A DNA stretch of 64,000 nucleotides, from the NCBI GenBank assembly GCA_021786105.1, contig JAJYNW010000010.1, positions 26,301 to 90,300 on the forward strand, given 5' to 3'. The stretch's first letter is position 1, and each line of letters begins with the position of its first letter. The DNA is from a bacterium (GTDB taxonomy: Bacteria > Patescibacteriota > Microgenomatia > Daviesbacterales > UBA10151). This document shows, piece after piece, positions 5,332 to 42,890 of this stretch. The position numbers and the translations under genes were made by a program. The notes beneath the pieces are model-generated. The model searched no databases and had not been told where the DNA came from. It worked only from the letters and a program-made list of their open reading frames with translations.

Positions 5332-6555
5332 ATGAAATATTCAAAACTTTTTCCGAAAACTATAAAACAGGTTCCAATTGGAGCTGAATCAGTAAATCAC
5401 CAGCTGTTGGTTCGTGCCGGATTTATCCATCAGGAAATGGCCGGGGTTTATACCTATTTGCCTTTGGGTTGGAGAGTAATCGAGAAAATCTCCAATATTG
5501 TGAGGGAGGAGATGAATAAAGTTAACGGTCAGGAAATACTGATGCCGGTTTTGCACCCCGGCGAAAATTGGAAGAAAACCGGCAGATTTGATAGCTTTGA
5601 TGTTTTGTTTAAGTTAAAGGGTGCAGGAGATAAAGATTTAGTGCTTGGGCCTACTCATGAAGAAATTATTTATCCTTTGCTTGCTGAGTATGTAAATTCA
5701 TATAAAGATTTACCGCTTCATTTATATCAGATCCAGACCAAATTTCGTAATGAGCCAAGAGCGAAGGCTGGGCTACTTCGTACCAGGGAATTTATTATGA
5801 AGGATTTGTATGCTTTTCATGAAAGCGATGAAGATAGGGATGAATATTATAAAATTGTTAGAGAGGCTTACTTGAGGATTTTTAAGAAATTAGAATTGCC
5901 TGTACTGATAACTAAAGCCTCGGGAGGAACTTTTTCTGATCTTTCGGAAGAATTTCAGGTAGTTACTCCTTCCGGCGAAGATACCATATTAATTTGCAGC
6001 AAATGTGATGTTGTAATTAACAAAGAAATTGCCGGAAAGGATTGTTCGGAATGCGGCGGGGTTATAAAAGAAGAAAAAGCTATTGAGGTGGGGAACATTT
6101 TCCCGCTTAAACGGGCTTATGCAGAAGTTTTTAACTTAAGTTTTACGGATAAAAAAGGAGAAAAGAAAATTGTTTCGGCAGGATGTTACGGTTTGGGGAT
6201 TTCCCGGGTAATGGGAGCTATTGTGGAAGTATCTCACGATGATAAGGGGATGATTTGGCCGGAAAGTGTGGCTCCGTTCCGGGTTCATTTGGTGGGTTTG
6301 GATTTGGAAGATAAAAGCGTAATGGAAATGGCAGAGAAGGTTCATAAATTGCTGGAGGCGGAAGGAATTGAGGTGTTGTTTGATGATCGGGTAGGAGTTT
6401 CAGCCGGGGCCAAATTTGCTGATGCGGACCTAATTGGCATTCCTTATAGAATTGTGATTTCTAAAAAGACCACAGAGGATAAATTGGAAGTTAAAAAGAG
6501 AAGCGAAAAAGAGACAAAATTTATGTCTTTTAAACAATTTCTGGAAATTGTTTAA
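5332..6555 (+). CDS. proS: prolyl-tRNA synthetase, bacterial type, minimal (no INS editing domain)
   Basis: Class II motifs (QIQTKFRNE, GCYGLGISR) and a C-terminal anticodon-binding domain. A CxxC-x13-CxxC zinc knuckle sits where the INS domain would be. Confidence 0.85.
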   Translation: MKYSKLFPKTIKQVPIGAESVNHQLLVRAGFIHQEMAGVYTYLPLGWRVIEKISNIVREEMNKVNGQEILMPVLHPGENWKKTGRFDSFDVLFKLKGAGDKDLVLGPTHEEIIYPLLAEYVNSYKDLPLHLYQIQTKFRNEPRAKAGLLRTREFIMKDLYAFHESDEDRDEYYKIVREAYLRIFKKLELPVLITKASGGTFSDLSEEFQVVTPSGEDTILICSKCDVVINKEIAGKDCSECGGVIKEEKAIEVGNIFPLKRAYAEVFNLSFTDKKGEKKIVSAGCYGLGISRVMGAIVEVSHDDKGMIWPESVAPFRVHLVGLDLEDKSVMEMAEKVHKLLEAEGIEVLFDDRVGVSAGAKFADADLIGIPYRIVISKKTTEDKLEVKKRSEKETKFMSFKQFLEIV

Positions 6556-6976: not shown

Positions 6977-7076
6977 CGCGATAGTATATTATAGGGTAAC
7001 TAAAAAATCAACAGACTGATTTGAATAAACCTCTTCATTGATTTTAAAGCTGATTTCTGGTACATTAGCTGATTAG

Positions 7077-7124
7077 TGTCGTCAGGACAATTATTTATGG
7101 ATCCCGATTTTCATCGGGATGACA
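7077..7124. repeat. short palindromic element (family termini TGTCGTCAGGAC...ATCGGGATGACA) immediately upstream of tig
   Basis: An inverted repeat ATCCCGAT-TTTC-ATCGGGAT lies inside TGTCRTC/GATGACA termini. It ends 7 nt before the tig ATG and provides AAAGGA. Confidence 0.5.
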
Positions 7125-8828: not shown

Positions 8829-9296
8829 ATGTTACTGGATCAGATTCAAACAGATTTAAAGAATGCTCAATTGGCCCGTGATGAGGTCAAGGTTTCAACT
8901 TTAAGGTTGCTTCTGTCTGAAGCCAAGAATAAGGAAATTGCCAAAGGCGAGAGTTTGACTGATGAGGAGGTGGTTTCCCTAATCCAGCGGGAAGTAAAAA
9001 AGAGAACAGAGGCTGCTGAAGGTTTTCGGAAAGGCGGCCGAGAAGACTCAGTATTAAAGGAAGAGAGTGAGGCAAAAGTTTTAGAAAACTATTTGCCAGC
9101 CCGTCTGTCAACTGAGGAATTGACTAAAATTGTTGAGGGTACTATAAATGAGTTGGGAGCCAGTACTATGCAGGATATGGGAAGAGTGATAGGAGCGGTG
9201 ATGGGTAAGGTTAAGGGTCAAGCGAGTGGCGGTGCAGTATCGGCTATTGTTAAAGAAAAGTTGTCAACTCTACAAGAAGGCTCTTCGGAGCCGTAG
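8829..9296 (+). CDS. yqeY: GatB/YqeY domain protein
   Basis: Sits directly after rpsU, a conserved pair. The product has a YqeY-like helical sequence. Confidence 0.75.
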   Translation: MLLDQIQTDLKNAQLARDEVKVSTLRLLLSEAKNKEIAKGESLTDEEVVSLIQREVKKRTEAAEGFRKGGREDSVLKEESEAKVLENYLPARLSTEELTKIVEGTINELGASTMQDMGRVIGAVMGKVKGQASGGAVSAIVKEKLSTLQEGSSEP

Positions 9297-9372
9297 GCCT
9301 GAGCGGTTAGCGAAGGATTGCGGTCGGAATGTGGAAGATTGCCACGTCGCCTTCGGCTTCTCGCAATGACAG
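9296..9372. repeat. ~77 nt palindromic element (CCTGAGCGGTTAGCGAAGGATTGCGG...GGAAGATTGCCACGTCGC...CTCGCAATGACAG), near-identical to the copy at 39632-39711
   Basis: Direct comparison of the two loci shows shared blocks GGAAGATTGCCACGTCGC and TCGCAATGACA. It overlaps the yqeY stop and ends 10 nt before the ybeY ATG. Confidence 0.55.
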
Positions 9373-9796: not shown

Positions 9797-11349
9797 TGGA
9801 AAACATTGCCTATTACTTAAAGTATCGTCCCCAAACTCTTGGCGAACTGGTAGGCCAGACATCGGTAAAAAAAACTCTCCTGTCATCTTTTCAAAATAAT
9901 AAGCTGTCTCACGCGTATCTTTTTGTCGGTCCCCGCGGTACCGGCAAAACCTCAACCGCCAGAATCTTGGCCAAGATGGTCAATTGTTCCGCAGAGCAAA
10001 ATATTCCTTGCAATAAGTGCGAAGCGTGTATATCTATAACAGACGGATCAAACCTTGATCTTATTGAAATTGATGCTGCTTCCAATCGCGGTATCGAAGA
10101 TATCAGATTGCTGCGCGACAAAATCAAACTCGCCCCCACTAGTGCTAAAAAGAAAGTTTACATCATTGACGAAGTGCATATGCTAACCACGGAGGCTTTT
10201 AATGCGCTTTTGAAGACTTTGGAAGAACCTCCTAAACATGCTTTATTTATTCTGGCAACTACGGAGGGTAATAAAGTTCCCCCAACAATTTTGTCCCGGG
10301 TGCAGAAGTTAGATTTTAAGTTGGCCACCTCAGAAGAATTGTTAGAAGCTTTGAAAAAAATTGTCACGGTGGAAAAAATTGATATTGACGAAGAGGCTTT
10401 AAAAAACCTGGTTAAAAAATCAAACGGTTCTTTTAGGGATGGAGTGAAATTATTGGACCAAGTTTCAATGGGAGAGAAAATTACTGTAAAGCTCGTTGAT
10501 GAAAGCTTAAAATCTTCCCAATTTGAAAATATTTTGGAGTTAGTGCAAAGCCTAAAAAACAAAAATGCCGAGGCCTGTTTATTGAGCTTATCGGGGCAAA
10601 TAGAAAATGGGGTTGATGTTAAAGAGCTAATGCTGTCTTTGATGGATATTTTGAGGAATTTAGTTTTCATAAAAAATGGATTAGGTGAACAATTAGTAAA
10701 AGTCCATTTAACGGAAGATAAATATAAACAACTGGAAGAGCTGGCGGAAAATTTTAGCCCTGATAATCTAATCAGAGCTTTAGATATTCTGCAAATCAGT
10801 CTTGAGAAAATGAAATTTGCTCCAATACCGTCATTGCCGCTGGAATTGGCAATTGTGGAAATCTGTGGGTTAGTAAATCAGCAGGTCAGAGCATCAGCAA
10901 GTCAGCAAGTCAGTGAACCAATGGATTCTGCCGATACTCCGATCTCATCTGAAACGCAGGTAGATGATCAGATTCCGGAAGCGCCTGTCTCAGGTAATGC
11001 TGATATTGCCAAACTGAAGGAAAAATGGACTTTTGTATTAGAGACAATAAGACCCTTTAATTTTTCTCTGGAAGCATTGTTAAGATCCATTAATATTGCA
11101 GAATGCACTGAAAGTTCAGTGATCATGGAAGTGCCATACTCGTTTCATCAAAGAATTTTAGAAGCTCCAAAAAATAGGGATTTGGTGGAAGGAATTCTGT
11201 CGGATATTTTAGGAAGAAGCATTAGGATCTCTGCCGTATTGGGAAGCCGGCCGGCCAAAAAAGATGATGTTGCCAATATTGAGGTAGCCCAGGATGATGA
11301 AATTATTAGAGCAGCTGCTGAAATCTTTAACTCTGATTCTGTTAACTAA
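9796..11349 (+). CDS. dnaX: DNA polymerase III subunit gamma/tau
   Basis: Walker A (GPRGTGKTS), a zinc module (CNKCEAC) and an SRC motif. Its start overlaps the ybeY stop (TAATG). Confidence 0.9.
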   Translation: MENIAYYLKYRPQTLGELVGQTSVKKTLLSSFQNNKLSHAYLFVGPRGTGKTSTARILAKMVNCSAEQNIPCNKCEACISITDGSNLDLIEIDAASNRGIEDIRLLRDKIKLAPTSAKKKVYIIDEVHMLTTEAFNALLKTLEEPPKHALFILATTEGNKVPPTILSRVQKLDFKLATSEELLEALKKIVTVEKIDIDEEALKNLVKKSNGSFRDGVKLLDQVSMGEKITVKLVDESLKSSQFENILELVQSLKNKNAEACLLSLSGQIENGVDVKELMLSLMDILRNLVFIKNGLGEQLVKVHLTEDKYKQLEELAENFSPDNLIRALDILQISLEKMKFAPIPSLPLELAIVEICGLVNQQVRASASQQVSEPMDSADTPISSETQVDDQIPEAPVSGNADIAKLKEKWTFVLETIRPFNFSLEALLRSINIAECTESSVIMEVPYSFHQRILEAPKNRDLVEGILSDILGRSIRISAVLGSRPAKKDDVANIEVAQDDEIIRAAAEIFNSDSVN

Positions 11350-11740
11350 ATCTCGGCATCTATACCATCAAAACAAGGAAGTATTCAGAATAAATATCCC
11401 TAGTATCTAGGGCTAAAAAATTGACATTCTTGAAGCTAGATTTCTTAAATTTACGTCCTTACTATTTATAATATAACTATGATTTCTGTTTTTTCTTTCA
11501 TGTTGATATATAATAAAAACAATGAAAAGAAGACTAGTAGGGAAAGATAAAAAATCGAAAGAGTTAATAGAATTTCTAAAAAAAGGTGGCAGGGAAAGAT
11601 CAAAAGAAGATTTTAAAAAATTACTTAAAAAGGCTGTGCAGTCAATAAAGAAATAACTATAGAGATATTCAAATCTTGTAATTTGGTATTTTTATTGCAA
11701 TAATAAATTAATAATTACAAAATAATCAATTTATAGATAA

Positions 11741-12268
11741 ATGGAAAAAACAGACAAAATCATTTTAGGTTTAAGAGGAAATGAAATTTTTGCGTATACA
11801 TTATTTGTAGTTGTATTTGGTGGACTGCCAATAATAGGTGGTCTGATGTTTCTTCAACTTCCACAAGTCCAACTATTAGGATTAATTCTTTTAATTGTAG
11901 GTTTAGTTCTTACTGGATATTTTGTATTCCTTGTAATTCTGCAAAGCAAAAAAAGCGTTTCAATAGACAAAAAAATCTTAACATTGATGACTCCAAACTG
12001 GAATGGTTCCTGGATAAAAAAGACAGTAGATCTATCAAAAACAAAAAGCATTGGATTTGTAAAAACAACAAGCTTACTCTATATGAAAAACGCAATAATG
12101 CCAGTGGGTATTCAGCACTTGGCTTTTATTTACGAAGATCAAAGTATTAATCAACTACCTATAAACCAATTTAAAACCACAGATGTTAAGAAAATATTAA
12201 ACTTAATTCATCAGAATAGTCCTTCTATTGGATTTGCTCCAGAAATAACTACTTATTTGAATAGCTAA
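11741..12268 (+). CDS. hypothetical membrane protein (two N-terminal TM helices plus a bPH/YdbT-like soluble domain)
   Basis: 175 aa ORF in an AT-rich accessory region. Hydrophobic segments were read from the translation. Confidence 0.4.
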   Translation: MEKTDKIILGLRGNEIFAYTLFVVVFGGLPIIGGLMFLQLPQVQLLGLILLIVGLVLTGYFVFLVILQSKKSVSIDKKILTLMTPNWNGSWIKKTVDLSKTKSIGFVKTTSLLYMKNAIMPVGIQHLAFIYEDQSINQLPINQFKTTDVKKILNLIHQNSPSIGFAPEITTYLNS

Positions 12269-12325
12269 ATAGTAGATAAAAAGCGGGTTTAAATTGTTTT
12301 TAAAAGACAGGAGGTGAAAATTTGT

Positions 12326-12484
12326 ATGAATAACAACATCATAAAAGTGGGAGCAATTGTTTGCATAGTGACAGGATCAGGATTAGCCTTTTCAAATTTA
12401 AGTGGAAGCAATGATCATATCCCCCTACTGTACCATGGAGCGATAATTGCATTTGGTTTTTATATGCTACTAAAGAAAAATTAA
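12326..12484 (+). CDS. small hydrophobic protein (52 aa, 2 predicted TM)
   Basis: Strong SD AGGAGGTG 8 nt upstream of the ATG and a palindromic terminator downstream. Confidence 0.35.
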   Translation: MNNNIIKVGAIVCIVTGSGLAFSNLSGSNDHIPLLYHGAIIAFGFYMLLKKN

Positions 12485-12514
12485 AGTGTCAGATAAATTT
12501 ACCATCCTTAAAAA

Positions 12515-12550
12515 AGTACCTACGCGTAGGTACTAAAATTTGTTGTTTTT
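12515..12550. terminator. bidirectional rho-independent terminator candidate (perfect 20 nt palindrome AGTACCTACGCGTAGGTACT followed by a T-run)
   Basis: Palindrome read directly. A-rich upstream and T-rich downstream, lying between the convergent small ORF and the transposase. Confidence 0.5.
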
Positions 12551-12559
12551 GAGGCTGAA

Positions 12560-13620: not shown

Positions 13621-13649
13621 CCTTGACAACCGGCTTCTTGTGGTTAACA

Positions 13650-15011: not shown

Positions 15012-15857
15012 ATGAAAGTATCTGGTAAAGCAGTTGCAGCAGCCATCTCCAAAAAGCTCCAAAAAAAAATTGAAAAATTAACAGTAAAACCAACCCTCGC
15101 CATTATTTTGGTCGGAGAAGATCCTTCCTCCCGGATGTATGTTGATTTTAAAATTAAGGCGGCCAAACGAATTGGGGTGGGGATAAAATTTTATGAATTT
15201 TCCGAAGATCAATACAGAGAAACTTTAAAAACCATCCAAAAGTTAAATGCCGATAAACAAGTTCACGGGATAATAATTCAATACCCAATTTATAAAAGTT
15301 GGGACTTTGATGAGCTGTTTTCAGCAGTTGATCCAGAAAAAGATGTAGATGGCTTTCATGAAAACTCTCCTTTTGGCGGGGCTACCGCCATTGGAGTTTG
15401 GGAAATGCTGACTGCTTTTGCGCTGATTGAGGGATTTAAAAAAACAGAGGAATTTTTGAAAGATAAAAAGATTGTGGTTTTAGGTAGAGGCAAAACAGCC
15501 GGCGGCCCGATTATAAAACTTTTGGGAAGTCATGGTTTGCAGGTAACGGTGGTAGCTCACGATACTGAAAATCCGCAAAGCGTAATCAAAAGCGGAGATG
15601 TGATAATCTCGGCAACCGGGGTGAAAAATATTGTTAATAAAACTAATCTTAAAAACGGCAGCTTTGTGATTGGAGTTGGGGTGGGTAAAGAAATAGTGGA
15701 CGGGCAGTCCAAAGTTTATGGAGATATTAATGAAGAAGATGTAGAAAAAATTGCCAAATTATATTGCCCGACCATTGGTGGGATTGGGCCTTTGACAATT
15801 GTGAGTTTGCTCGAGAATACGATAGAGGCAAGTATCAGACAACAAAAAAAAGATTAA
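15012..15857 (+). CDS. folD: bifunctional methylene-THF dehydrogenase/cyclohydrolase
   Basis: 281 aa with FolD-like N-terminal catalytic and C-terminal NAD(P)-binding domains. Confidence 0.9.
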   Translation: MKVSGKAVAAAISKKLQKKIEKLTVKPTLAIILVGEDPSSRMYVDFKIKAAKRIGVGIKFYEFSEDQYRETLKTIQKLNADKQVHGIIIQYPIYKSWDFDELFSAVDPEKDVDGFHENSPFGGATAIGVWEMLTAFALIEGFKKTEEFLKDKKIVVLGRGKTAGGPIIKLLGSHGLQVTVVAHDTENPQSVIKSGDVIISATGVKNIVNKTNLKNGSFVIGVGVGKEIVDGQSKVYGDINEEDVEKIAKLYCPTIGGIGPLTIVSLLENTIEASIRQQKKD

Positions 15858-16450: not shown

Positions 16451-16516
16451 GGTGGGTGAATTTTACCATTTATAGGAGACCATTGCGAGCGCTAGAGGAT
16501 TGAATTGGTATAAGTT

Positions 16517-17284: not shown

Positions 17285-18652
17285 ATGTTAAAGCTATATA
17301 ACACACTATCACGAAAAGTTGAGGACTTTGTTCCTATAAATACACCAAAGGTTGGACTTTATACTTGTGGCCCGACCGTTTATAACTTTGTCCATATCGG
17401 CAATTTAAGAACTTATATTTTTGAAGATATTTTGCAGAGGGTTTTAGAGGCTGATAGTTATGAAGTCAACAGAGTGATAAATATTACTGATATCGAAGAC
17501 AAAATTATCAAAAAAGCTGAGGAAGAAAGAGTAAGTATTGAGGTCATTACCAAGCCGTACGAGCAGGCTTTTTTGGAAAATTTACAAAAACTTAATATTA
17601 AATCAGCCAATGTTTATCCTAGGGCCACCGAGCACATTGGCAAAATGATCAAATATATTGAAGTTTTGATTGAAAAGGGTTTGGCGTATGTGGAAAAAGA
17701 TGGGTCAGTGTATTTTGATATTTCCAAATTCCCGGAATATGGGAAGTTATCTCAGCTTGATAAACGGGAAATTAAAGCCGGAGCTAGGGTAAAAGCTGAT
17801 GAATATTCCAAAGAAGATGTTGTCGATTTTGCCTTATGGAAAGCAGTCGGGTCGGATGAAATTGGTTATGATTCGCCGTGGGGCAAGGGTCGGCCGGGTT
17901 GGCATATTGAATGTTCGGTGATGAGTCAGGAATATTTGGGGGATACTTTTGATATTCACGCCGGAGCGGTTGATTTAATTTTTCCTCATCATGAAAATGA
18001 GATAGCTCAGTCTGAGGGTAAAACCGGTAAGAAGTTTGCTAATTTTTTTATTGAAGGCGAGCATTTGTTGGTAGACGGCCAAAAAATGGCCAAGTCTTTG
18101 GGTAATTTTTTCACCTTGAAGGATATTGAAGCCAAAGGATTTGACCCTTTGGCTTTCAGGTATTTGGTATTAACTGCCCATTACAGGGACAAATTAAATT
18201 TCACCTGGGAATCTTTGCAGGCTGCCCAAAATGCTTTAAATAATTTAAGGGAAATTATTCGTGATTGGCCTTCTTCTGTCATTGCGAGCCCCGAAGGGGT
18301 GCGGCAATCTTATTACCAGAAATTTATGAGTGCTGTCAATAATGATTTAAATATACCCCAAGCTTTGGCGGTAATGTGGGATATGGTCAAATCTGATAAT
18401 CCAACTTCTGCCAAAGCCAAATCAATTTTGGAAATGGATAAAATTTTAGGCTTAAAGTTAGATGAATATTTAGGGAAAAAACTGGAAATTCCGGAAGAAG
18501 TACAAAAGTTAGTTAACCAAAGGGAACAAGCGCGTAAATCTGGAGACTTCAAAAAATCAGATGAACTGCGCCATGAAATTAAAAAACTAGGTTTTGAAAT
18601 CGAAGATACTCCTCAAGGTCCCAAAATAAAAATTGACAAACAGCCCTCCTAG
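17285..18652 (+). CDS. cysS: cysteinyl-tRNA synthetase
   Basis: Class I HIGH-like (CGPTVYNFVHIGN) and KMSKS (KMAKSLGN) motifs. Confidence 0.9.
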   Translation: MLKLYNTLSRKVEDFVPINTPKVGLYTCGPTVYNFVHIGNLRTYIFEDILQRVLEADSYEVNRVINITDIEDKIIKKAEEERVSIEVITKPYEQAFLENLQKLNIKSANVYPRATEHIGKMIKYIEVLIEKGLAYVEKDGSVYFDISKFPEYGKLSQLDKREIKAGARVKADEYSKEDVVDFALWKAVGSDEIGYDSPWGKGRPGWHIECSVMSQEYLGDTFDIHAGAVDLIFPHHENEIAQSEGKTGKKFANFFIEGEHLLVDGQKMAKSLGNFFTLKDIEAKGFDPLAFRYLVLTAHYRDKLNFTWESLQAAQNALNNLREIIRDWPSSVIASPEGVRQSYYQKFMSAVNNDLNIPQALAVMWDMVKSDNPTSAKAKSILEMDKILGLKLDEYLGKKLEIPEEVQKLVNQREQARKSGDFKKSDELRHEIKKLGFEIEDTPQGPKIKIDKQPS

Positions 18653-19242: not shown

Positions 19243-19298
19243 GATTGCTTTGTCGCTTTTTGTCATCGCGAGACCAGAAGCGACAAAATAGCCAATGG
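19243..19298. repeat. palindromic element related to the TGTCAT..CGCGAG family (GATTGCTTTGTCGCTTTTTGTCATCGCGAGACCAGAAGCGACAAAATAGCC)
   Basis: Hairpin arms TTTGTCGCTT/AAGCGACAAA. The GATTGCTT and TGTCATCGCGAG blocks recur at other loci. Confidence 0.4.
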
Positions 19299-19358: not shown

Positions 19359-19411
19359 TCAGAATTACATAGATAGTTTTGAGCGGTTGAATTGTGGTAA
19401 ACTAGATCCTT

Positions 19412-20110
19412 GTGGAAACTGAAGTTATTACAATTGACGGGCCGACCAGTTCCGGGAAAAACAGCGTGGGTTTTTTACTGGCGCAAAAATTAGGCTACCA
19501 ATATATTGATTCCGGTTCAATTTACCGGGCCGGCAGTATTTTCGTTTTGCGGAACAATATTTCCCCAGATAGCGAAAAAGTTGCGGAAGTTTTCAAAAAT
19601 CTGCAAATAGAAACTAAAACTCAAGATCATGAGGTGAGGTTTTTGGTAAATGGGGAAGATATCACAGATCATTTGCATGATCCCGAGGTGACTAAAACTG
19701 TTCCAATTGTTGCTGCTATTGGGGAGGTTAGAGAAGAGGTTAAAAAAATCCAATACAATTTAGTAAATTCTAAAAATACGGTTATGACCGGTAGGGATAT
19801 CGGTTCAGAAATTTTTCCCGATGCCATGCATAAGTTTTATTTAACTGCTTCAGTTGAAGTAAGAGCCCAAAGGCGTTTTAAGCAGTTAGTGGAAAAAGAT
19901 CCAAAAGTAAAATATGAGGAAATTTTGAAGAGTATGGAAGACAGGGATGAGAAGGATATGACTAGAGAGGTGTCCCCCTTACGGATTCCGGAAGATGCGG
20001 TGGTGATAGATAACTCGGATTTAACTATTGAACAAACAGTGGAAAAGATGTTGAAGTATATACAATCAAATGTCATTGCGAACGAAGTGAAGCAATCTGG
20101 GTCGGGTTAA
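19412..20110 (+). CDS. cmk: cytidylate kinase (GTG start)
   Basis: P-loop GPTSSGK and CMP-binding motifs, 232 aa. Confidence 0.85.
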   Translation: METEVITIDGPTSSGKNSVGFLLAQKLGYQYIDSGSIYRAGSIFVLRNNISPDSEKVAEVFKNLQIETKTQDHEVRFLVNGEDITDHLHDPEVTKTVPIVAAIGEVREEVKKIQYNLVNSKNTVMTGRDIGSEIFPDAMHKFYLTASVEVRAQRRFKQLVEKDPKVKYEEILKSMEDRDEKDMTREVSPLRIPEDAVVIDNSDLTIEQTVEKMLKYIQSNVIANEVKQSGSG

Positions 20111-20120
20111 ACATTAACTA

Positions 20121-20156
20121 GATTGCTTCGTCACTCCGTTCCTCGCAATGGCAAGG
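20121..20156. repeat. degenerate copy of the palindromic element (GATTGCTTCGTCACTCCGTTCCTCGCAATGGCAAGG) just upstream of the M16 peptidase gene
   Basis: It shares the GATTGCTTCGTC and CTCGCAATG blocks with 32870-32903 and supplies AAGGAG upstream of the ATG at 20166. Confidence 0.4.
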
Positions 20157-22686: not shown

Positions 22687-23184
22687 ATTTTTTTTGATTT
22701 GTAAGGAAATAAAGATTGCCACAATTGCTGTTACAAATCCTCCCAATATATCCAAAGGATAATGTACGCCGACAAAAATCCTTGATAGTCCTACCCAACA
22801 CATGATAAACAATAAAAGCAGTGACCACCTGGATTTGAAATAAGTATAGGCAAAAGCCAATACAGCAGTAATGGCAGCATGATGGGAGGGAAAGGAGGCG
22901 CCTGCTTTTTCGGGAACAATAGGGGTGAAATGAAAATTGGCAAAAGGTCTGGGTTCAAAAAAGAAAAGGTGGATGATAACAATCAGTAAAAGGGCTATGG
23001 GTACGCTGACTAAAATTAATAACAGGGCTTTTTTCTCGCGGATGCTGCCTTTAATTCCCAGAATTAAAACCAGTAACAGCGCCAGATAGATCAAGTAAGT
23101 GGCACCAAACACCATTAATTTATCTAGGACTGGAAAGCGTCCGTTTAAATTAAATATTTGAAAGAAAAGGCTAACGTTGTCCAT
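22663..23184 (-). CDS. PAP2 family phosphatase (undecaprenyl-diphosphatase-like)
   Basis: PAP2 motifs PSHH and SRIFVGVHYPLD in a 173 aa membrane protein. Confidence 0.7.
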   Translation of the reverse strand: MDNVSLFFQIFNLNGRFPVLDKLMVFGATYLIYLALLLVLILGIKGSIREKKALLLILVSVPIALLLIVIIHLFFFEPRPFANFHFTPIVPEKAGASFPSHHAAITAVLAFAYTYFKSRWSLLLLFIMCWVGLSRIFVGVHYPLDILGGFVTAIVAIFISLQIKKNLEARFLR

Positions 23185-23193
23185 TATTTCGCT

Positions 23194-23559
23194 TCAGAAT
23201 GACAAAATGTAAGGCCAAAAGATTATGATCCCCAAAATTGCGGAAGTGATAGCAGCAATTAAAACTGCCCCGGCGGAAATATCTTTGGCATACTTGGCTC
23301 TCGGGTGTTCTTTGTCTGTAAATGCATCAACTACTGCCTCGACTGCGGTATTGGTTAATTCTACGGAAATGACAAACCCGATTAAGAAGACAATAATTAA
23401 CCAGTCCTGGCGGGAAAGATTTAAAATGAGAGAGACGATAATAACAGCTAATCCTGCAACAAAATGAAATTTTAAATTTGGTTCTTCTCTTAAGGCGGCA
23501 ATAATTCCGGCGCAAGCATATTTAAAAGAGAGTATTCTCCTGTTTGCCAAATTTTCCAT
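23194..23559 (-). CDS. dgkA: diacylglycerol kinase (prokaryotic DgkA/undecaprenol kinase family)
   Basis: 121 aa, three TM helices, NTAVEAVVD signature. Confidence 0.8.
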   Translation of the reverse strand: MENLANRRILSFKYACAGIIAALREEPNLKFHFVAGLAVIIVSLILNLSRQDWLIIVFLIGFVISVELTNTAVEAVVDAFTDKEHPRAKYAKDISAGAVLIAAITSAILGIIIFWPYILSF

Positions 23560-25045: not shown

Positions 25046-26966
25046 CAAAGGTACAGGTACTAATCTACAAGCAATCATTAACGGGGTAGAAAGCGGAAAA
25101 ATTCCGGCTAAAATTGCAGCGGTAATTTCTGATACACCTGAAGCGCAAGGTTTAACAAGAGCCAAAAAACACAGACTTCCAATTAAAATAGTTCCGAAAA
25201 AAGAAGGACTGTCAGCAGTATTAAAAAAGCTGAACCCTGATTATATTTGTTTGGCTGGATGGAAACAGATTATTTTGGATGAGGTGATTGAGGCATTTCC
25301 TAATCGAATTTTAAATGTTCACCCCGGGCTTATACCGGATACAATGGACGGAGTTGTTAAAAATCCGGACGGAACCAACGGTCTATGGAATAAAGGGAAA
25401 ATGACCGATAAGGCCATGCAGAACTTTTTTGATAATAAGGCAACATATGCCGGTTCAAGCATTCATTTCTTAACTTTGGAATTTGATTTCGGACCGGTAT
25501 TGGGTAGAGGTTTTGAAGAGATAAGACGCGGGGATACCGTTGAATCTTTATATTCTAGATTAAAAATCAAAGAGAATAAATTGTATGCAGAGGTTTTGGC
25601 AAAACTTTGTTCTTCCCAAACCGTCTTAATTATTGATGGAGGCGGAAGAGGGTCAGTGCTGGTTGATAAATACGGGCAAAGCGAACAAATAGGGAAAATT
25701 TTAGTTATTCCCGGTAACGATCTGATGCAAATCAATACCAAAAAGCCGGTGATGACTTACCAACATTTGAAAACTACATCAGTTGACGAAATTTTAGAAA
25801 TTTGCCAAAAAGAAAAAGTGGATTTAGTGGATGTAGCTCAGGATAATGCAGTGGAAGTTGGGTTAGTAGATAAGCTGCAAAAAAATAAAATACCGGTAGT
25901 TGGTCCAACCAGGTTAGCCGGACAAATCGAATGGGATAAAGGATGGTCAAGGGATTTTATGAGAAAATATCAAATTGCGCACCCTAAGTATTATGTTTTC
26001 TCAACGGAAAAGGATGGAATAAAATTTGCAGAAGAATCAGAAAACCCTAAATGGTTTGTGAAAGCGGCTGGTTTGGCAGAGGGTAAAGGGGTGATACCGG
26101 CAGAGAATAAAAAAGATGTAATTAACGCTATCAAGCAAATGAGTAAATTTGGCAGCTCCGGCAAAACTTACTTATTGGAGGAATGGCTAACAGGTGAAGA
26201 ATTCTCGGCTTTTGCAATTTGCGATGGGAAAACTTTTAAATTGGTAGGTTTTGCTCAAGACCATAAAAGGGTAGATGATGGCGATCAAGGTCCTAATACC
26301 GGAGGGATGGGTTGTGTGTCCAGTCCTTTAATAGTTGATAAAAATATTAAAAGCCAGATAGAGGAAATCTTTAAAAAAGCTATGGCAGGTTTAAAAAAAG
26401 AAAAAAGGCCATACCAAGGAGTTTTGTATTTGGGTGGGATAGTAGTTGGAGGAAAAACTTATGTAATTGAATTTAATGCCAGGTGGGGAGATCCGGAGGC
26501 AGAAGTAATTGTGCCGTCTATCAAAAATGATTTGTTTGATTTATCAAAGGTTATAATTTCGGGAAGGATTAAAGACTTTGATGTCAGAACAGATAACAAA
26601 GTTAGAGTGGCAGTAGCGGGTGCAGCAAAAGGTTATCCGGTTGATTATTCTAAAGTTAAAGGTAAAAAAGTGTTGGGAATTGATAAAGCTATGCAAACAG
26701 GAGTTAAAATTTATGGCGCGGGTATTAAAAAAATTGACGGAGATTTTGTAGTTAATGGTGGCAGGGTTTTATATATGGTGGCGGAAGGAAAGAATATTAT
26801 GGACGCAAGAGAAAAAGCTTATAAAGCTATGAAATTGATAAAAATTGAGGGAGATAACTTGCATTACAGAAAAGATATTGGTTGGAGGGATGTTGAGCGA
26901 ATGCGAAATCCTGAGCGAGCGAAGCGAGTCGAAGGAGAAAGGCTGAAAAATGATACAAAAAGTTAG
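25017..26966 (+). CDS. purN-purD: fused GAR transformylase (PurN, N-terminal) and GAR synthetase (PurD, C-terminal)
   Basis: N-terminal PurN motifs (NVHPGLIPD) followed by a PurD ATP-grasp, 649 aa in total. The 3' tail is encoded by a degenerate copy of the GAGCGAAGCGAG element. Confidence 0.85.
   Translation: MKKIAVLISNKGTGTNLQAIINGVESGKIPAKIAAVISDTPEAQGLTRAKKHRLPIKIVPKKEGLSAVLKKLNPDYICLAGWKQIILDEVIEAFPNRILNVHPGLIPDTMDGVVKNPDGTNGLWNKGKMTDKAMQNFFDNKATYAGSSIHFLTLEFDFGPVLGRGFEEIRRGDTVESLYSRLKIKENKLYAEVLAKLCSSQTVLIIDGGGRGSVLVDKYGQSEQIGKILVIPGNDLMQINTKKPVMTYQHLKTTSVDEILEICQKEKVDLVDVAQDNAVEVGLVDKLQKNKIPVVGPTRLAGQIEWDKGWSRDFMRKYQIAHPKYYVFSTEKDGIKFAEESENPKWFVKAAGLAEGKGVIPAENKKDVINAIKQMSKFGSSGKTYLLEEWLTGEEFSAFAICDGKTFKLVGFAQDHKRVDDGDQGPNTGGMGCVSSPLIVDKNIKSQIEEIFKKAMAGLKKEKRPYQGVLYLGGIVVGGKTYVIEFNARWGDPEAEVIVPSIKNDLFDLSKVIISGRIKDFDVRTDNKVRVAVAGAAKGYPVDYSKVKGKKVLGIDKAMQTGVKIYGAGIKKIDGDFVVNGGRVLYMVAEGKNIMDAREKAYKAMKLIKIEGDNLHYRKDIGWRDVERMRNPERAKRVEGERLKNDTKS
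26895..26940. repeat. degenerate GAGCGAAGCGAG-type element forming the C-terminal codons of purN-purD
   Basis: CCTGAGCGAGCGAAGCGAGTCGAAGG resembles the TGTCATTCTGAGC..GCGAAGAATC elements at 28590 and 36124. Confidence 0.35.
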
Positions 26967-29736
26967 AGTACAAACAATAGGGCAACAAAACATTAAAGTT
27001 TATCGACTAGAGGGAATATTAGAAAAAGACGCCAAAATTTTGGCTGAAAAATTACTATCGGAATCAATCAACCAAAGGTATGCAATTAACCGTCCAATCC
27101 ACCTCGAAGGAGTTAAAGCCCACCTTCGAGGTGTGGCTGTAATAGAAATTGCTTATAAACCAGGGGTCATGAACCCGGAAGTAACATCGATTATGAAAGC
27201 TGCTTCTGATTTGGGGATTAAACTAATTGCCTGCGATAGCTCCATGGAGTACCTTAATAAAAAGGTTTCCTTTAATCCTTTAATAGAACATATAGTGACA
27301 GAAGAACCGCAAACACTTTTAATCAAAGAAAAACAAAGTCAAACTCAAATAATCCCAATCAGAAATCTTAATGATAAAGAGCTTTTGGATTTATCCAAAG
27401 ATAAACTTTTCTTAAATTTGGAAGAAATGCAAACCATCCAAAAATATTTTCAAAAAATCAACAGAGATCCGACTGATTTAGAACTGGAAACTTTAGCTCA
27501 AACTTGGAGCGAGCACTCCGGTCATAAAACTTTTAAAGCGAAATTAATTGTCGACGGCAAAGAAAAAGAACCGCTAATCCAAAGGATCAAAAAAGAGGCT
27601 TTGAAACATAATAAAAATATTGTGTCAGCATTTGAGGATAATTCCGGGGTGATGGATTTTTATGATGGTTTCGGAATTTGCGGCAAAGTGGAAACCCACA
27701 ATGCTCCGTCAGCTATTGAACCATATGGCGGGGCAATGACCGGTTCGGGTGGGGTGTTTCGCGATATCGCGGCAACCGGAAAAGGCGCAAAAAATATAGC
27801 CTCAACCGATATCTTTTGTTTTGCGCCGGTTGATTTACCTATTGAGAAATTACCTCAAGGTTGTTTGCCGCCGGAATATTTATTAAAAAGGGTGGTAGCC
27901 GGAGTGAGGGATTACGGGAATAGAATGGGAATTTCGACTAATAACGGATCAGTGCATTTCCAGGAAGATTTTCGGGCCAGACCAACAGTGATTGTGGGGG
28001 CATACGGCATAGTGCCGAAAAAATATGCTTTAAAAGACAAGCCGAAAATTGGAGATTTGATAATTTGTGTGGGCGGGCGGACAGGCAGGGATGGAATTCA
28101 CGGAGCCACTTTTTCTTCCGGTGAAATGACTGAACGGACAATTGAAGTGCATTCTTCAGCGGTGCAAATTGGCAATGCCATTGAGGAAAAAAGAATGTTT
28201 GATGCGCTCTTGGAAGCTAGAGACAGAGATTTAATCAGGTTGATACAGGATGTCGGTGGTGGAGGATTCTCGTCAGCTGTCGGTGAAATTGGAGAAAGTT
28301 TAGGGGTATCAGTTGATATTAAAAATGCGCCGTTAAAATACCAGGGTTTAGCACCTTGGGAAATTTGGGTGTCAGAGTCCCAGGAAAGAATGGTGGTGGT
28401 TTTAGAGGAAAAGAATCTGGAAGGATTTAAAGACCTTTGCAAAAAACATAACGTGGAGATGGCAGTTTTAGGAAAGTTTGATGGCAGTAAAAAATTAAAC
28501 GTGACTTTTGGAGAGGAAGTTGTCGGCGATTTAGATATGCATTTTTTGCATAAAGGGTTACCGAAAAGAATTCTTAAAGCCACCTCTCCTGTCATTCTGA
28601 GCACAGCGAAGAATCTCGAGATTAATGAATTTAGAGATCCTTCACTAATCGTTCAGGATGACAAAATTGAAGAGCCAAAAACAGAAAAAGAATGGATTGA
28701 AGTTTTGAAAAAGGTTTTGGGTCACGGTAATGTTTGTTCAAAAGAGCCAATTGTCCGGATGTATGACCATTCGGTCCAGGGGACTAATGATTTGCAGCCC
28801 TTTTCCGGTGTAACTTTAGACGGGCCAAATGATTCTCCGGTTTTGCGGCCATTCTTGGATAAAAAATATGGCATGGTAATTTCTCATGGATTAAATCCGA
28901 TACTAAATAATATTGATCCATATTGGGGGAGTATTTGGGCAGCAACAGAAAGCTTATCAAATTTTGTGGCAGTGGGAGGAGACTATAAAGAAGCTTGTCT
29001 GATAAATAATTATATTTGGCCGTTTCCGGATGAGGAATCACTTTGGTCATTGGATAGATCTGTTGATGCAGTAGTAGATTTTATGAAAGTTTTCCAAATC
29101 CCGGTAATTTCAGGCAAGGATAGTTTGTCCTCAACTTACCGGGCAGCAAACGGCACGATTATTAAAATTCCCCCAACACTTTGTATGTCAGTTTTTGGCA
29201 GAATTCTTGATGTCGATAAAACTGTCACTGCTGATTTTAAGAAAGTTGGTTCAACAATTTTGTTGGTAGGAAAAACGGATAAAAGTTTAGGCGGATCCAT
29301 ATATTATCAAGTAAATAATTTAGAAGGAAATTCTTTGCCGAAAGTAGATTTGAAATTATTGTCAGAAGTTTTTACAGCAGTTAATAACGCAATAACAAAT
29401 GGAAAAGCATTAGCAGTTCACGATGTATCAGAAGGGGGAATAATTTCTACAATCTTTGAAATGTGTGTGGGCGGAGGGATGGGGGCAGATATCCACCTCG
29501 AAGGAGTCAAAGCCCACCTTCGAGGTGATCAGATTTTGTTTAACGAAACTGCAGGGTGTTTTATTGTTGAGGTGGAAAACAAAAAAGTCGCTGAGCGACT
29601 TTTTAAAAATATTCCTTATCACATCTTAGGAGAAACAAAAGTAGATCAAAAAATAGAAGTAAAAAATCTGTTTAAAGCCGACGTTAATGATTTGAAAAAA
29701 GCTTGGCAGGAACCAATGAGGAGGTGCTTCAAATGA
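26950..29736 (+). CDS. purL: FGAM synthase PurL with an N-terminal PurS-like extension; carries three in-frame repeat insertions
   Basis: 928 aa with PurL AIRS-domain motifs (VETHNAPSAIEPYGGA, GDYKEACLINNYIWPF). purQ follows. Confidence 0.85.
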   Translation: MIQKVRVQTIGQQNIKVYRLEGILEKDAKILAEKLLSESINQRYAINRPIHLEGVKAHLRGVAVIEIAYKPGVMNPEVTSIMKAASDLGIKLIACDSSMEYLNKKVSFNPLIEHIVTEEPQTLLIKEKQSQTQIIPIRNLNDKELLDLSKDKLFLNLEEMQTIQKYFQKINRDPTDLELETLAQTWSEHSGHKTFKAKLIVDGKEKEPLIQRIKKEALKHNKNIVSAFEDNSGVMDFYDGFGICGKVETHNAPSAIEPYGGAMTGSGGVFRDIAATGKGAKNIASTDIFCFAPVDLPIEKLPQGCLPPEYLLKRVVAGVRDYGNRMGISTNNGSVHFQEDFRARPTVIVGAYGIVPKKYALKDKPKIGDLIICVGGRTGRDGIHGATFSSGEMTERTIEVHSSAVQIGNAIEEKRMFDALLEARDRDLIRLIQDVGGGGFSSAVGEIGESLGVSVDIKNAPLKYQGLAPWEIWVSESQERMVVVLEEKNLEGFKDLCKKHNVEMAVLGKFDGSKKLNVTFGEEVVGDLDMHFLHKGLPKRILKATSPVILSTAKNLEINEFRDPSLIVQDDKIEEPKTEKEWIEVLKKVLGHGNVCSKEPIVRMYDHSVQGTNDLQPFSGVTLDGPNDSPVLRPFLDKKYGMVISHGLNPILNNIDPYWGSIWAATESLSNFVAVGGDYKEACLINNYIWPFPDEESLWSLDRSVDAVVDFMKVFQIPVISGKDSLSSTYRAANGTIIKIPPTLCMSVFGRILDVDKTVTADFKKVGSTILLVGKTDKSLGGSIYYQVNNLEGNSLPKVDLKLLSEVFTAVNNAITNGKALAVHDVSEGGIISTIFEMCVGGGMGADIHLEGVKAHLRGDQILFNETAGCFIVEVENKKVAERLFKNIPYHILGETKVDQKIEVKNLFKADVNDLKKAWQEPMRRCFK
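27097..27133. repeat. 37 nt palindromic element (CACCTCGAAGG-loop-CCTTCGAGGTG) in-frame inside purL, encoding IHLEGVKAHLRG
   Basis: It matches 29491-29527 at 36 of 37 nt inside the same gene, while the flanking protein sequences are unrelated. Confidence 0.6.
28590..28663. repeat. 74 nt MITE-like element in-frame inside purL (TGTCATTCTGAGCACAGCGAAGAATCTCGAG...TCGTTCAGGATGACA), encoding VILSTAKNLEINEFRDPSLIVQDD
   Basis: Almost identical to the intergenic copy at 36124-36196, with the same termini and internal AGAGATCCTTCACTAATCGTTCAGGATGACA. Confidence 0.6.
29491..29527. repeat. second copy of the 37 nt CACCTCGAAGG/CCTTCGAGGTG palindrome in-frame in purL
   Basis: See 27097-27133. Confidence 0.6.
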
Positions 29737-32074: not shown

Positions 32075-34014
<1,940 letters not shown>

Positions 34015-39151: not shown

Positions 39152-39642
39152 CAAAAGTAATGATCATAACTGGTTCTGATTCTGATTTGCCGGTGATGAA
39201 GGAGGTGGCAAAAGTTATGGAGGAATTTGGGGTAAGTTTCGAAATGACAATTTCTTCAGCGCACCGATCACCGGAAAGAACCAAGGAGCTAGTGGAAAAT
39301 GCCAAAAGCAGCGGAATAAAAGTAATTATTGCCGGGGCGGGAATGGCAGCACATCTTGCCGGCGTATTGGCGGCAGAATTTCCTTTGCCGGTGATTGGAG
39401 TACCTCTCCAAAGCGGAGTTTTGCATGGGATAGATGCTTTACTTTCGACAATGCAAATGCCCTCGGGGATTCCGGTAGCAACTGTAGCGATAAACGGAAC
39501 AAAAAATGCCGGGATTTTGGCAGTGCAAATTTTAGCAACTTCGGATAAAAGTTTGGAAGAAAAGCTGGTGGAATACAAAAAGAAATTAGCTGAAGGTGTT
39601 TTAGAAAAGGCAAAAAAATTGGCACAAGAAATGTCGTCCTGA
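39148..39642 (+). CDS. purE: AIR carboxylase / N5-CAIR mutase PurE
   Basis: 164 aa with SAHR and GAGMAAHLAGV motifs. No purK is present in the window. Confidence 0.9.
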   Translation: MTKVMIITGSDSDLPVMKEVAKVMEEFGVSFEMTISSAHRSPERTKELVENAKSSGIKVIIAGAGMAAHLAGVLAAEFPLPVIGVPLQSGVLHGIDALLSTMQMPSGIPVATVAINGTKNAGILAVQILATSDKSLEEKLVEYKKKLAEGVLEKAKKLAQEMSS

Positions 39643-39711
39643 GTGATTAGCCGAAAGATTTCCCACGGACTGGGAAGATTGCCACGTCGCTACGCTCCTC
39701 GCAATGACAAG
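39632..39711. repeat. ~80 nt palindromic element (TGTCGTCCTGAGTG...GGAAGATTGCCACGTCGC...CCTCGCAATGACA), paralog of 9296-9372, overlapping the purE stop and the purC start
   Basis: Direct comparison with 9296-9372. It supplies the ATG that gives the track ORF its spurious MTRY extension. Confidence 0.55.
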
Positions 39712-41706: not shown

Positions 41707-41729
41707 AAATTCTGAGCAACGTCGAAGGA

Positions 41730-42890
41730 TTAACGTAAATCCAAAGTTTCGCCCCCAAAGGTAATATTTTTTGACTTGATAACAACTTGTCTTTTTCCTT
41801 CTTCCAAATATCCAGCGTCCAAGCTTTCAAAACCATTTTCCTTGATAATTTCTTGAGCTTTTTCGACATCCTCAGTCGGTAAGAATATTGCATAATCTTG
41901 CCCCATGTTATAAGTGCCGTACATTTCCTCATCGGACAAATTGCTGTGTTTCTGAATAAAAGCAAATAATTCCGGGGCGGGATAAACCTTTTCTATCACG
42001 TAAACGAAATCTTGAGGCGCCCGCATAACTTTGCGAAGTCCATGGCCGGTTATATTGGAGATGTAATGGATATTCACCCATTGATCAAGTAAGCTCTGGA
42101 TTAATTTGACATAAATATTAGTTTTGGAAAGAAGTGCTTCGCCGTACAATTGTCCGCTGGGAAGTTTGGTTGCGTATCCATCAGGTAATTCTTTAGCAAC
42201 TGCTCTGGCCAGCGAAACTCCATTAGCATTAATGCCGTTGCTTTTTAAGAAAATAATTCTGTCTCCTTTTTGTAAATTCCCGGCTTTGATTAACCGGCCA
42301 TTTTTAATGGTTCCTATGGCTGATCCGGCCAGATCAACAGTTCCTTCCTTAATAATTCCTTTAAGCGTAGGTGTTTCTCCGCCGCCCCAAGCTACTCCTG
42401 ACTCATTACAAGCATTTTTCCAGCCTTGGATTAAATCTTTCATTCTTTCTTCGTCCTGCAGCCAGCTGTTATCCTCGATGGCCCAATAGGCATGCAACAC
42501 AAACGGCTTAGCTCCTGAGGTAATAAGGTCGTTTATTATTGTAGCCACGGTATCATGGGCGATAATATCGTAATAAGTTTTCTTGGTGATTGTTCTCATC
42601 TCGTCCGCCACTAAGTTTTTTGTCCCCAATCCTTCAATTACCGAAGCCATGAAGGTTTTTTCATCAACTTGCCAAACAAAGGCTGATTCGCCCCGGCTGT
42701 CTGATATTTCTTTATAATTAATTGCTGCTAAATTTTTAGCGGTTTGGGCTGCCGCGGTTTGGGCTAATTTTTTAATCGGATCTTTGGTGCCGTAGTTGTC
42801 TCCGACTTGAGAATAAGTCAAGCTTGTCGCTGCGCGATAAGTGATAGATTGTTTATTACGAAGTGACAAACTTGTTTTATCTTGTGCCAT
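41730..42890 (-). CDS. purM: AIR synthetase (phosphoribosylformylglycinamidine cyclo-ligase), divergent
   Basis: The N-terminus MAQDKTSLSLR aligns to E. coli PurM MTDKTSLSYK. AIRS N/C domain motifs are present. Start trimmed from the longer track ORF. Confidence 0.7.
   Translation of the reverse strand: MAQDKTSLSLRNKQSITYRAATSLTYSQVGDNYGTKDPIKKLAQTAAAQTAKNLAAINYKEISDSRGESAFVWQVDEKTFMASVIEGLGTKNLVADEMRTITKKTYYDIIAHDTVATIINDLITSGAKPFVLHAYWAIEDNSWLQDEERMKDLIQGWKNACNESGVAWGGGETPTLKGIIKEGTVDLAGSAIGTIKNGRLIKAGNLQKGDRIIFLKSNGINANGVSLARAVAKELPDGYATKLPSGQLYGEALLSKTNIYVKLIQSLLDQWVNIHYISNITGHGLRKVMRAPQDFVYVIEKVYPAPELFAFIQKHSNLSDEEMYGTYNMGQDYAIFLPTEDVEKAQEIIKENGFESLDAGYLEEGKRQVVIKSKNITFGGETLDLR

Follow-up and report, generated by a model that had tools for sequence, protein, structure and literature searches.

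The 64-kb stretch analysed here (hereafter the window; contig JAJYNW010000010.1, positions 26,301 to 90,300) carries 13 loci, between 7 and 42 kb, with short palindromic repeats that form a real family and are variably present among related genomes. The host segment has a GC content of 39% and belongs to Candidatus Daviesbacteria (Microgenomates/Patescibacteria), a group within the candidate phyla radiation (CPR). The basic unit is a hairpin of about 25-37 nt, with a TGTC tag, a stem that opens with AT, and a C after the stem. We regard the units as CGTC/TGTC-tagged repetitive extragenic palindromes (REPs), the same thing as the NTS and the Ssn-related motifs (SRM) of a GIY-YIG nuclease family, and consider that they have spread as selfish DNA in the Daviesbacteria lineage. 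We put the probability of this reading at roughly 0.7. It draws on an architecture with compensatory changes in the stem, on filled and empty sites in relatives, on residence in frame within proteins, and on the flanking of Ssn genes by the same subtypes, all of which are observed directly. The class itself is known, with a first description in 2013 and a nuclease link in 2025. What is new is the host group, together with hairpin variants that fall outside the published SRM string.

The family stands out clearly from the background. The head motif TGTCATYNYGAR is present 12 times in the window, compared with 0.15 expected from dinucleotide shuffles, an excess of about 80-fold; the number 12 was reached in none of 100 shuffles. 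A structural descriptor, composed of the tag, AT, three bases, an interior, the complement of the three bases and AT, detects 13 units, compared with 1.65 in Markov simulations, of which about 10 are clearly genuine. A covariance model (CM) built from 33 units retrieves the same copies, and finds no convincing one in the 1-7 kb or 42-64 kb parts of the window. Since the window shows no general hairpin excess (a generic scan for GC-rich hairpins gave 61 regions, compared with 50-68 in simulations), the repeat signal is family-specific. Rfam gave no match at gathering thresholds and no tRNAs were found in the window, and a literature search with the raw motif strings returned only primers and vectors. 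One further hairpin, at 10829-10853 (CGTCATTGCCGCTGGAATTGGCAAT in dnaX), was judged to be a chance resemblance, as it lacks the C tail and is not retrieved by the CM. The 13 loci comprise six inverted doublets, three single tagged units (one of them decayed), two tagless units, one rearranged composite and one doubtful case.

A preliminary description of this DNA, made from the sequence alone, had already proposed a dispersed palindromic family, and the head motif, descriptor and CM agree with it. Many of the loci that it listed are clear copies (7077-7124, 9296-9372, 20121-20156, 28590-28663, 32870-32903, 36124-36196 and 39632-39711). The loci at 26895-26940 and 41707-41735 are tagless and recognizable as insertions by comparison with orthologous sites, 19243-19298 is a composite, and 16475-16507 is weak. 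The list was incomplete, as it overlooked 18277-18311 in cysS, 20071-20099, and the decayed unit 23181-23204. The supposed element 20121-20156 turned out to be the right half of an 84-nt doublet (20071-20154), and 32870-32903, which had been counted among copies close to start codons, is actually located inside purA, on the minus strand. What was described as internal blocks, GATTGC..GTCGC and GAGCGAAGCGA, is the unit as it reads from the other strand. The elements were also described as much more GC-rich than the host DNA; their GC content is indeed raised, but only modestly (42-58%, compared with 39% for the window). Neither the in-frame residence in PurA, PurL and CysS nor the link to a nuclease family had been noted.

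The units share a common layout, which consists of (T/C)GTC, AT plus three bases, an interior, the complement plus AT, and C(T/C)N. Two types can be distinguished. Type A follows the pattern ATYCT-GA-(2-4 bp stem, 3-5 nt loop)-GA-AGRAT, and type B the pattern ATTGC-GAG..hairpin..GACGWR-GCAAT, with an asymmetric internal loop. Most copies in the window have a 2x2 G.A/A.G internal loop, followed by an inner stem of 2-4 bp and a GNA-type loop. The unit at 7098-7124 differs, with a GAAA loop between the arms of a perfect 8-bp stem and CCA as its tail. In an alignment of 33 units drawn from the window and other genomes, 76% of the cells pair, compared with 60% in column shuffles (none of 500 reached the observed value) and 17-42% in controls with slid partners. 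The three outer variable pairs are not counted as evidence, because they were forced by the way in which the units were collected. The inner pairs, which the descriptor does not force, covary. Columns 12/22 contain GC 17 times, AU six times, CG six times and UA once, and columns 10/24 and 11/23 form Watson-Crick pairs or, in 20-22 of the 33 units, G.A/A.G. The stem spans nine positions and starts with A-T and T-A in 33/33 units, the G.A/A.G combinations fall on positions 6-7, and loops measure 3-7 nt. Within the tag, G, T and C never vary in this alignment, three units of the window being tagless relics. In the unfiltered alignment, at least 90% of the units keep the C after the stem. In the second position of the tail, T is found in 58 of 71 units and C in 11, while the third is variable; the first was set to C by the selection filter. 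We looked 5' of the tag for a conserved target or extension, but the flank is only weakly pyrimidine-rich, with at most 0.25 bit per position. The sequence CCTYCTTC, which had been considered as a part of the element, was dropped, as conservation of the flank is too weak.

The comparison with relatives points to insertions. About 30 syntenic Daviesbacteria relatives were available in total (fetched relatives and loci are designated by L-numbers); the purA region was compared across 11 genomes (L004-L014), and the glyA region across about 20 metagenome contigs. The nearest species-level genomes are metagenome-assembled genomes (MAGs) of Daviesbacteria, some of them mislabelled, with PurA identities of 65-79%. 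Nearly every locus is empty at the orthologous sites, usually with overlapping stop and start codons, and the presence/absence variation envisaged in the preliminary description is thus confirmed among the relatives compared. At the purP2/purH junction, the genes overlap (ATGA) in nine relatives, and the orthologous doublet of L013 shares its spacer sequence with that of the window. The purE and purC genes overlap or abut in 9/9 relatives read. The cmk and M16 peptidase genes overlap (TAATG) in L084, L085, L087 and L100, and are separated by a different single unit in L092. The yqeY and ybeY genes abut or overlap in seven relatives; L084 has a short spacer without a unit, L088 and L114 have different doublets, and L099 (7103-7183) carries an unrelated insert with an 82-nt palindrome. 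At dagK/pap2, L006 has a full unit in the opposite orientation. The tail of the PurN-PurD fusion corresponds to an insertion of about 28 nt by comparison with L013, and is absent from nine relatives read. Six relatives lack the prs/purM unit, and L004, L006 and L010 have it with the interior flipped. In the tig leader, doublets are found solely in the window, L084 and L088, and in seven relatives the ATG follows about 12 nt after a conserved promoter. The same junctions, namely the tig leader, yqeY/ybeY, cmk/M16 and prs/purM, have thus been filled repeatedly in different lineages. The element load also differs, from zero in 21 kb of L085, L096 and L097 and one doubtful descriptor match in L100 to four units each, within 9-11 kb, in L088 and L114.

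Chance and faulty assembly explain these patterns poorly. The preliminary description had considered assembly chimeras, yet PurA is letter-for-letter identical on contigs of the NCBI MAG GCA_027424735.1 and of two ENA assemblies, and other assemblies of the same population are identical to the window over 21 kb, save for one single-nucleotide polymorphism (SNP) inside the unit at 36167-36196. As three independent assemblies carry identical copies, the copies are not artefacts.

The promoter upstream of tig is sigma-70-like, TTGATT-N17-TAMATT (7025-7075), and is conserved in L085, L092, L099, L100, L101, L114 and L139. As the ATG is located only about 12 nt after the -10 box, a leaderless or near-leaderless tig mRNA is implied in the relatives without the repeat. 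A similar layout, TTGACA-N16-TAACAAT-ATG, is found ahead of glyA (13623-13652).

The assignment to a class rests on two published descriptions. Di Nocera 2013 (BMC Genomics 14:522, PMC3733652) defined CGTC REPs as having a tag that is often TGTC (a CCTC variant also exists), stems of 8-9 bp that open with AT, a loop of 4-5 nt, and a 3-nt tail with the consensus CCA. Tag-outward (HH) dimers prevail, units are found in frame inside genes, and no transposase or RAYT is linked to them; the superfamily takes in RPE-4/RPE-6 of Rickettsia and dRS3 of Neisseria (PMC3733652). Chenal 2025 (Nat Commun 16:2388, PMC11893778) reported that the Neisseria NTS, CGTCATTCCCGCGMAVGCGGGAATCYRG, and the SRM flank genes for Ssn, small single-domain GIY-YIG proteins of the cd10448 type. 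Ssn binds the hairpin solely as single-stranded DNA (ssDNA) and cuts just 5' of it; binding depends critically on the C that follows the palindrome, and cleavage on the three nucleotides upstream (PMC11893778). The nucleotides that matter to Ssn are kept in our units, with an invariant G-T-C upstream and a C after the stem in at least 90%. Six of the 13 loci of the window are tag-outward doublets, and none is tag-inward or tandem. The peptides reported by Di Nocera (VIPAKAGI, VIAGLDPAIH, ..RFRGND) match peptides of the window, for example ..LIVQDD, in their reading frames.

The link to the nuclease comes from other genomes. All eight independent Ssn-like GIY-YIG genes in the fetched loci (L102, L124, L164, L174, L176, L177, L178 and L181) are flanked on both sides by units, within about 50 nt and with the tags pointing outward. 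In L124, an open reading frame (ORF) of 94 aa for a GIY-YIG protein stands between two clusters of three units each. In L102, the GIY-YIG gene lies between two identical units, in a gene order that is the same as in the window, dnaX-SHMT-cassette-folD, with the cassette between glyA and folD. The L177 cassette bears type B of the window (TGTCATTGCGAG..GACGAAGCAATCTA), and L124, L176 and L181 bear the G.A-mismatch type. At E <= 1e-5, at least 7,996 small GIY-YIG proteins were retrieved by homology, and the genomic contexts of six of these were examined. Units are also found in Nitrospinota, Omnitrophota and other MAGs, beside near-canonical NTS copies such as TGTCATTCCCGCGCAGGCGGGAATCCA. We briefly considered the connection of GIY-YIG genes and REPs (a "GIY-YIG REPtron") as a new discovery, and withdrew this idea, as the connection is described in Chenal 2025.

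Many contigs with Ssn genes (L164-L173) stop at the flanking hairpin, about 34 nt beyond the gene, and many Ssn homologues are found on contigs of 0.5-2 kb. The repeats thus apparently break metagenome assemblies, so that their abundance in MAGs is probably underestimated.

Several points weigh against the assignment to Ssn-related selfish DNA. Neither the 64-kb window nor 455 kb of Daviesbacteria loci contain ssn or any other GIY-YIG gene. The published SRM string, HGTCWYN(0-2)YYVSBRHN(0-5)WNVSBRGN(0-2)RNCYNB, has no match in the window. It matches canonical NTS but misses NTS-like units that flank ssn in L164 and L174, and is therefore better seen as a narrow search tool than as a definition. 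That Ssn mobilizes hairpins is a hypothesis in the literature, the effect shown in Neisseria being on natural transformation (PMC11893778). Present-day activity is doubtful, since several copies are tagless and variation within the population is nil save for one SNP. Finally, single units fold weakly in nearest-neighbour models (z from +1.4 to -1.6), except for the one at 7098-7124, whose DNA fold has a z of -3.9. As the thermodynamic support for single units is weak, their structure rests on covariation. Homodimers form long hairpins, with z from -4.4 to -6.1, and heterodimers fold no better than shuffles. The copies are collected in the table.

Table. Copies of the repeat family in the window, with strand in brackets and CM scores in bits
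Position	Form	Location	Units, sequence or product	CM score
7077..7124	inverted doublet	tig 5' leader	right unit 7098-7124 (-), TGTC-ATCCCGAT-GAAA-ATCGGGAT-CCA; left part 7077-7097, decayed tag remnant TGTCGTCAGGAC	28.6
9297..9371	heterodimer	yqeY/ybeY	tagless type-A unit 9297-9320 (+); type-B unit 9335-9371 (-)	
16475..16507	doubtful, weak degenerate resemblance	recR/ybaB	CCATTGCGAGCGCTAGAGGATTG	not retrieved
18277..18311 (+)	single type-B unit, in frame	cysS, linker between catalytic and DALR domains	encodes SVIASPEGVRQS	
19243..19298	rearranged type-B composite	spacer 5' of cmk	tail half GATTGCTTTGTCGC + head TGTCATCGCGAG	
20071..20154	84-nt inverted doublet, tags outward	cmk/M16	units 20071-20099 (+) and 20121-20154 (-; tag TGCC)	
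23181..23204 (-)	decayed unit	dagK/pap2	head TGTCATTCTGA gives dagK stop TGA; decayed 3' stem holds pap2 ATG	
26913..26940 (+)	tagless unit	3' end of purN-purD fusion	ATCCTGAGCGAGCGAAGCGAGTCGAAGGAG; encodes extra C-terminal tail NPERAKRVEGE of PurN-PurD	
28590..28663	74-nt inverted doublet, in frame	purL	encodes VILSTAKNLEINEFRDPSLIVQDD, 24 codons	39.1 + 36.8
32868..32902 (-)	single type-B unit, in frame	purA	unit + flank encode 14 aa	
36124..36196	73-nt inverted doublet, fold z -4.4	fills purP2-purH spacer		36.7 + 36.8
39632..39709	heterodimer	purE-purC	degenerate type-A unit 39632-39661 (+, tag TGTCGTC); type-B unit 39675-39709 (-)	
41709..41732 (+)	tagless unit	between convergent prs and purM	ATTCTGAGCAACGTCGAAGGAT	

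Four units reside in frame within PurA, PurL and CysS, and gene callers took the resulting 437-aa PurA and 928-aa PurL as real. In PurA, the 12-aa insertion is absent in all 11 relatives. In CysS, the window has PSSVIASPEGVRQSY, compared with a DxPxIGCAE-type linker in 9 of 11 relatives, a net gain of 5 aa; L090 and L097 have different inserts at this linker. The purL doublet (RNA fold -30.3 kcal/mol, z -6.0) sits in the variable linker that joins the AIRS_C and PurM_N-like domains, and the same linker contains a peptide of the same family, SHPERAKRVEGSL, in L014. The reading frame never varies: forward units are read as GTC ATT.. (V-I-..), and reverse ones as ..AAT/GAT GAC (N/D-D). The DnaX linker bears units as well, in five relatives (VIASEAKQS..PRNDD, VILSPKDEGSLA..ILRFAQNDK and similar).

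At gene junctions, the elements make up essentially the entire spacer and have become parts of the neighbouring genes. They provide stops (purE, cmk, dagK), C-terminal tails (Cmk, PurN-PurD), the ATG of pap2 and the leader of tig. The yqeY/ybeY element begins right after the yqeY stop and stops 11 nt before the ybeY ATG at 9383. The 20071-20154 doublet (RNA fold -37.7 kcal/mol, z -6.1) constitutes the C-terminal tail and stop of cmk, and parts cmk from the M16 peptidase gene, with its true start at 20166. The tagless unit ahead of purL bears AAGGAG 10 nt upstream of the purL ATG (26950), the right tag of the purP2-purH doublet is followed after 7 nt by the purH ATG (36204), and the purE-purC heterodimer provides the purE stop TGA (39640-39642), with the true purC start at 39716. 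ATG codons internal to the elements give rise to spurious starts at 9329 (MWKIATSPSASR), 20148 (MARSSS) and 39704 (MTRY). The preliminary description rightly regarded these N-terminal extensions as spurious, since orthologue alignments begin at 9383, 20166 and 39716.

The same description had stressed the adjacency to start codons, and 6-11 nt indeed separate the end of the tag from the ATG at tig, ybeY, M16, purH and purC. The spacing is the same in filled junctions read in relatives. A contribution of Shine-Dalgarno (SD)-like sequences was also suggested. It is seen for some copies only, with AAAGGA, AAGGAG, AGGAG or AAGG after the tag at tig, purL, M16 and purC. These features, the long hairpins of the homodimers, and the repeated filling of the same junctions across lineages could suggest that the hairpins are functional RNA or operon punctuation, supplying SD sequences, leaders, stops and protection of mRNA 3'-ends, and that they are kept for function rather than being selfish. 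We consider this quite unlikely. Most close relatives manage without elements at these junctions, with overlapping genes. Copies within coding sequences cannot serve initiation, and the antisense purA copy carries the same SD-like flank (GAAGGAGG). The low information content of the flank, the failure of heterodimers to fold better than shuffles, and the arrangement of nuclease genes between the same units, which resembles that of an insertion sequence (IS), point in the same direction. Since the ancestral junctions overlap (ATGA, TAATG), an intergenic insertion that survives must abut a start codon. The closeness to start codons is thus explained mostly by the extreme packing of genes, and a secondary role in translation or mRNA stability is possible.

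Ssn-type hairpins in ultra-compact CPR genomes might also be inserted preferentially at stop/start overlaps and then be co-opted as punctuation (stops, starts, SD sequences, structured leaders), with types A and B as new Ssn recognition classes beyond the SRM consensus. This proposal is unlikely. If the punctuation were real, the near-leaderless tig mRNA, for example, would have gained a leader.

For selfish, Ssn-related REPs, the following history appears plausible. Units and tag-outward doublets would have spread in the Daviesbacteria lineage, and the doublets may be gene-less derivatives of a hairpin-ssn-hairpin cassette. An Ssn-type enzyme would drive, or would once have driven, this spread in the genome or lineage of the window. 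Copies that survived at exact gene junctions would now act as stops, C-terminal tails and 5' leaders, sometimes with SD-like purines, and others would persist in frame in tolerant protein linkers, as the RPEs of Rickettsia do.

Other modes of mobilization fit the data less well. Tagged hairpins in inverted doublets resemble REPINs, and the lack of target-site duplications is as expected under single-strand transposition, so that the repeats could be classical REPs or REPINs moved by a RAYT (a Y1 HUH transposase of the IS200/IS605 type). We find this very unlikely. The tag is (T/C)GTC and not GTAG or GTGG, none of the 62 ORFs of the window that were scanned has a Y1_Tnp domain, no RAYT was found to be tied to CGTC repeats (PMC3733652), and the gene embraced by the units is a GIY-YIG nuclease in 8/8 cases. 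An origin as miniature inverted-repeat transposable elements (MITEs) from an IS with a DDE transposase, or from mere chance or misassembly, is practically refuted. The doublets do have terminal inverted repeats, and the only transposase in the window is a DDE enzyme of the IS1595 family (12612-13559, minus strand). This IS was considered as the parent element and rejected, as its ends are unrelated to the units. No consistent target-site duplications are seen when filled and empty sites are compared, the sole possible case being AACATAT at purP2/purH. The same unit is present in Nitrospinota and other phyla, and the excess over shuffles and the identical copies in separate assemblies speak against chance and artefact. 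The initial label of MITE/REP-like elements can therefore be kept in its REP-like part and not in its MITE part.

The IS1595 transposase belongs to a low-GC island (about 35%) at 11350-13616, which also has small unknown ORFs and is located between dnaX and glyA, genes that are adjacent in most relatives. Imperfect inverted repeats of 32 nt are found at 11350-11381 and 13585-13616.

Other small repeats were noticed as well. A second, unrelated palindromic family with the core CACCTCGRAGGTG forms a 37-nt element with an 11-bp stem. It is found twice in frame in purL (27097-27133 and 29491-29527), where it encodes IHLEGVKAHLRG, and is missing from most relatives; L006 has it at both sites, and L005 and L013 have variants. 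The hairpin TTCCACCTCGGAGGTGGAA 5' of cmk (19340-19361) is related to it. YqeY has a C-terminal extension, TLQEGSSEP (9272-9293), that is missing from relatives and is encoded by a small hairpin, GGCTCTTCGGAGCC, directly before the repeat doublet. Further non-TGTC inserts in frame are present in relatives, namely YKRSLKTSFEKQAFKLV in PurA of L010 (about 10900-11000) and PSFAEASAGKDFRSS in CysS of L097. In view of these varied inserts, several families of small repeats seem to circulate in the clade.

The surrounding genes are closely packed and mainly on the plus strand, with a strong positive GC skew, and include tig, yqeY, ybeY, dnaX, glyA, folD, cysS, cmk and a complete purine cluster. The latter (23627-42977) is a full de novo set, with purF, a purN-purD fusion, purL, purQ, guaA, purA, purH, purB, purE, purC, prs and purM. 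Within it, two tandem archaeal-type PurP paralogues (DUF1246/DUF1297, 34017-36118) adjoin purH. Nucleotide biosynthesis is usually missing from CPR bacteria. The ybaB-recR block (15854-16795) is on the minus strand in the window, in the order recR, ybaB. In all relatives that cover it, both genes are on the folD strand in the order ybaB, recR, which indicates a local inversion of about 0.95 kb; the length of the spacer between them is very variable among relatives, from 3 to about 1950 nt. A class II aminoacyl-tRNA synthetase (5332-6555; Pfam tRNA-synt_2b and HGTP_anticodon) aligns to relatives in two pieces, which are about 400-540 nt apart in L084, L085, L092, L096, L101 and L139. Up to about 170 aa present in most relatives are therefore missing from the window synthetase, unless it was the relatives that gained the extra segment. 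Two short ORFs (52101-52487 and 52499-52879) together correspond to one MFS transporter, which may be a frameshifted pseudogene.

The repeats do not overturn current understanding, but they place a little-known, well-defined class, the CGTC REPs or SRM, in the candidate phyla radiation. They have strongly reshaped a minimal genome, in which nearly all sizeable spacers within 35 kb are due to them; they have altered at least six genes at their ends, and have added peptides to PurA, PurL and CysS. For the annotation of MAGs, they are a source of wrong start calls and inflated protein lengths. The variant hairpins beside Ssn genes are candidates for new specificities of ssDNA-nuclease tools.

Among known systems, the palindromic elements of Rickettsia (RPEs), which Ogata et al. 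reportedly found in 2000 in frame in conserved proteins, share with our repeats the location in tolerant loops, the small reduced genome of the host, and short peptides that orthologues lack. Most RPE families measure about 100-150 nt, whereas single units in the window have 33-37 nt and doublets 48-84 nt, and many of the copies in the window lie at junctions, where they remodel stops, starts and leaders. The REP/REPIN-RAYT systems (Nunvar 2010, Bertels & Rainey 2011) are similar in having tagged hairpins, inverted doublets that form long hairpins, an enzyme gene in single copy set between its own repeats, and an action on ssDNA. They differ in the tag, GTAG instead of xGTC, and in the enzyme, a Y1 HUH transposase instead of a GIY-YIG nuclease.

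With respect to the Ssn/NTS system, the likeness extends to the oriented, unpaired xGTC tag, the stem starting with AT, the C after the palindrome, and the many dispersed copies. The units of the window differ from it in that most have tandem G.A/A.G (type A) or a GAG../GACGWR loop (type B) rather than a perfect stem of 8-9 bp. In addition, ssn is not seen in the window, and the host belongs to the CPR, which is not discussed in Chenal 2025, a survey of RefSeq reference and representative genomes (PMC11893778). By comparison with the CGTC superfamily, the tails in the window are mostly CTN and not CCA, loops have 3-7 nt, stems are often interrupted by non-Watson-Crick pairs, and the host phylum is outside the five reported there. 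The shared features are the TGTC tag, the A-T and T-A first pairs, the tail that starts with C, the HH dimers (spacers 16-100 nt), the in-frame copies in housekeeping genes that read V-I-x... on one strand and ...x-(N/D)-D on the other, and the absence of a linked transposase. The unit at 7098-7124, with its 8-bp stem, 4-nt loop and CCA tail, is a textbook CGTC-1 element.

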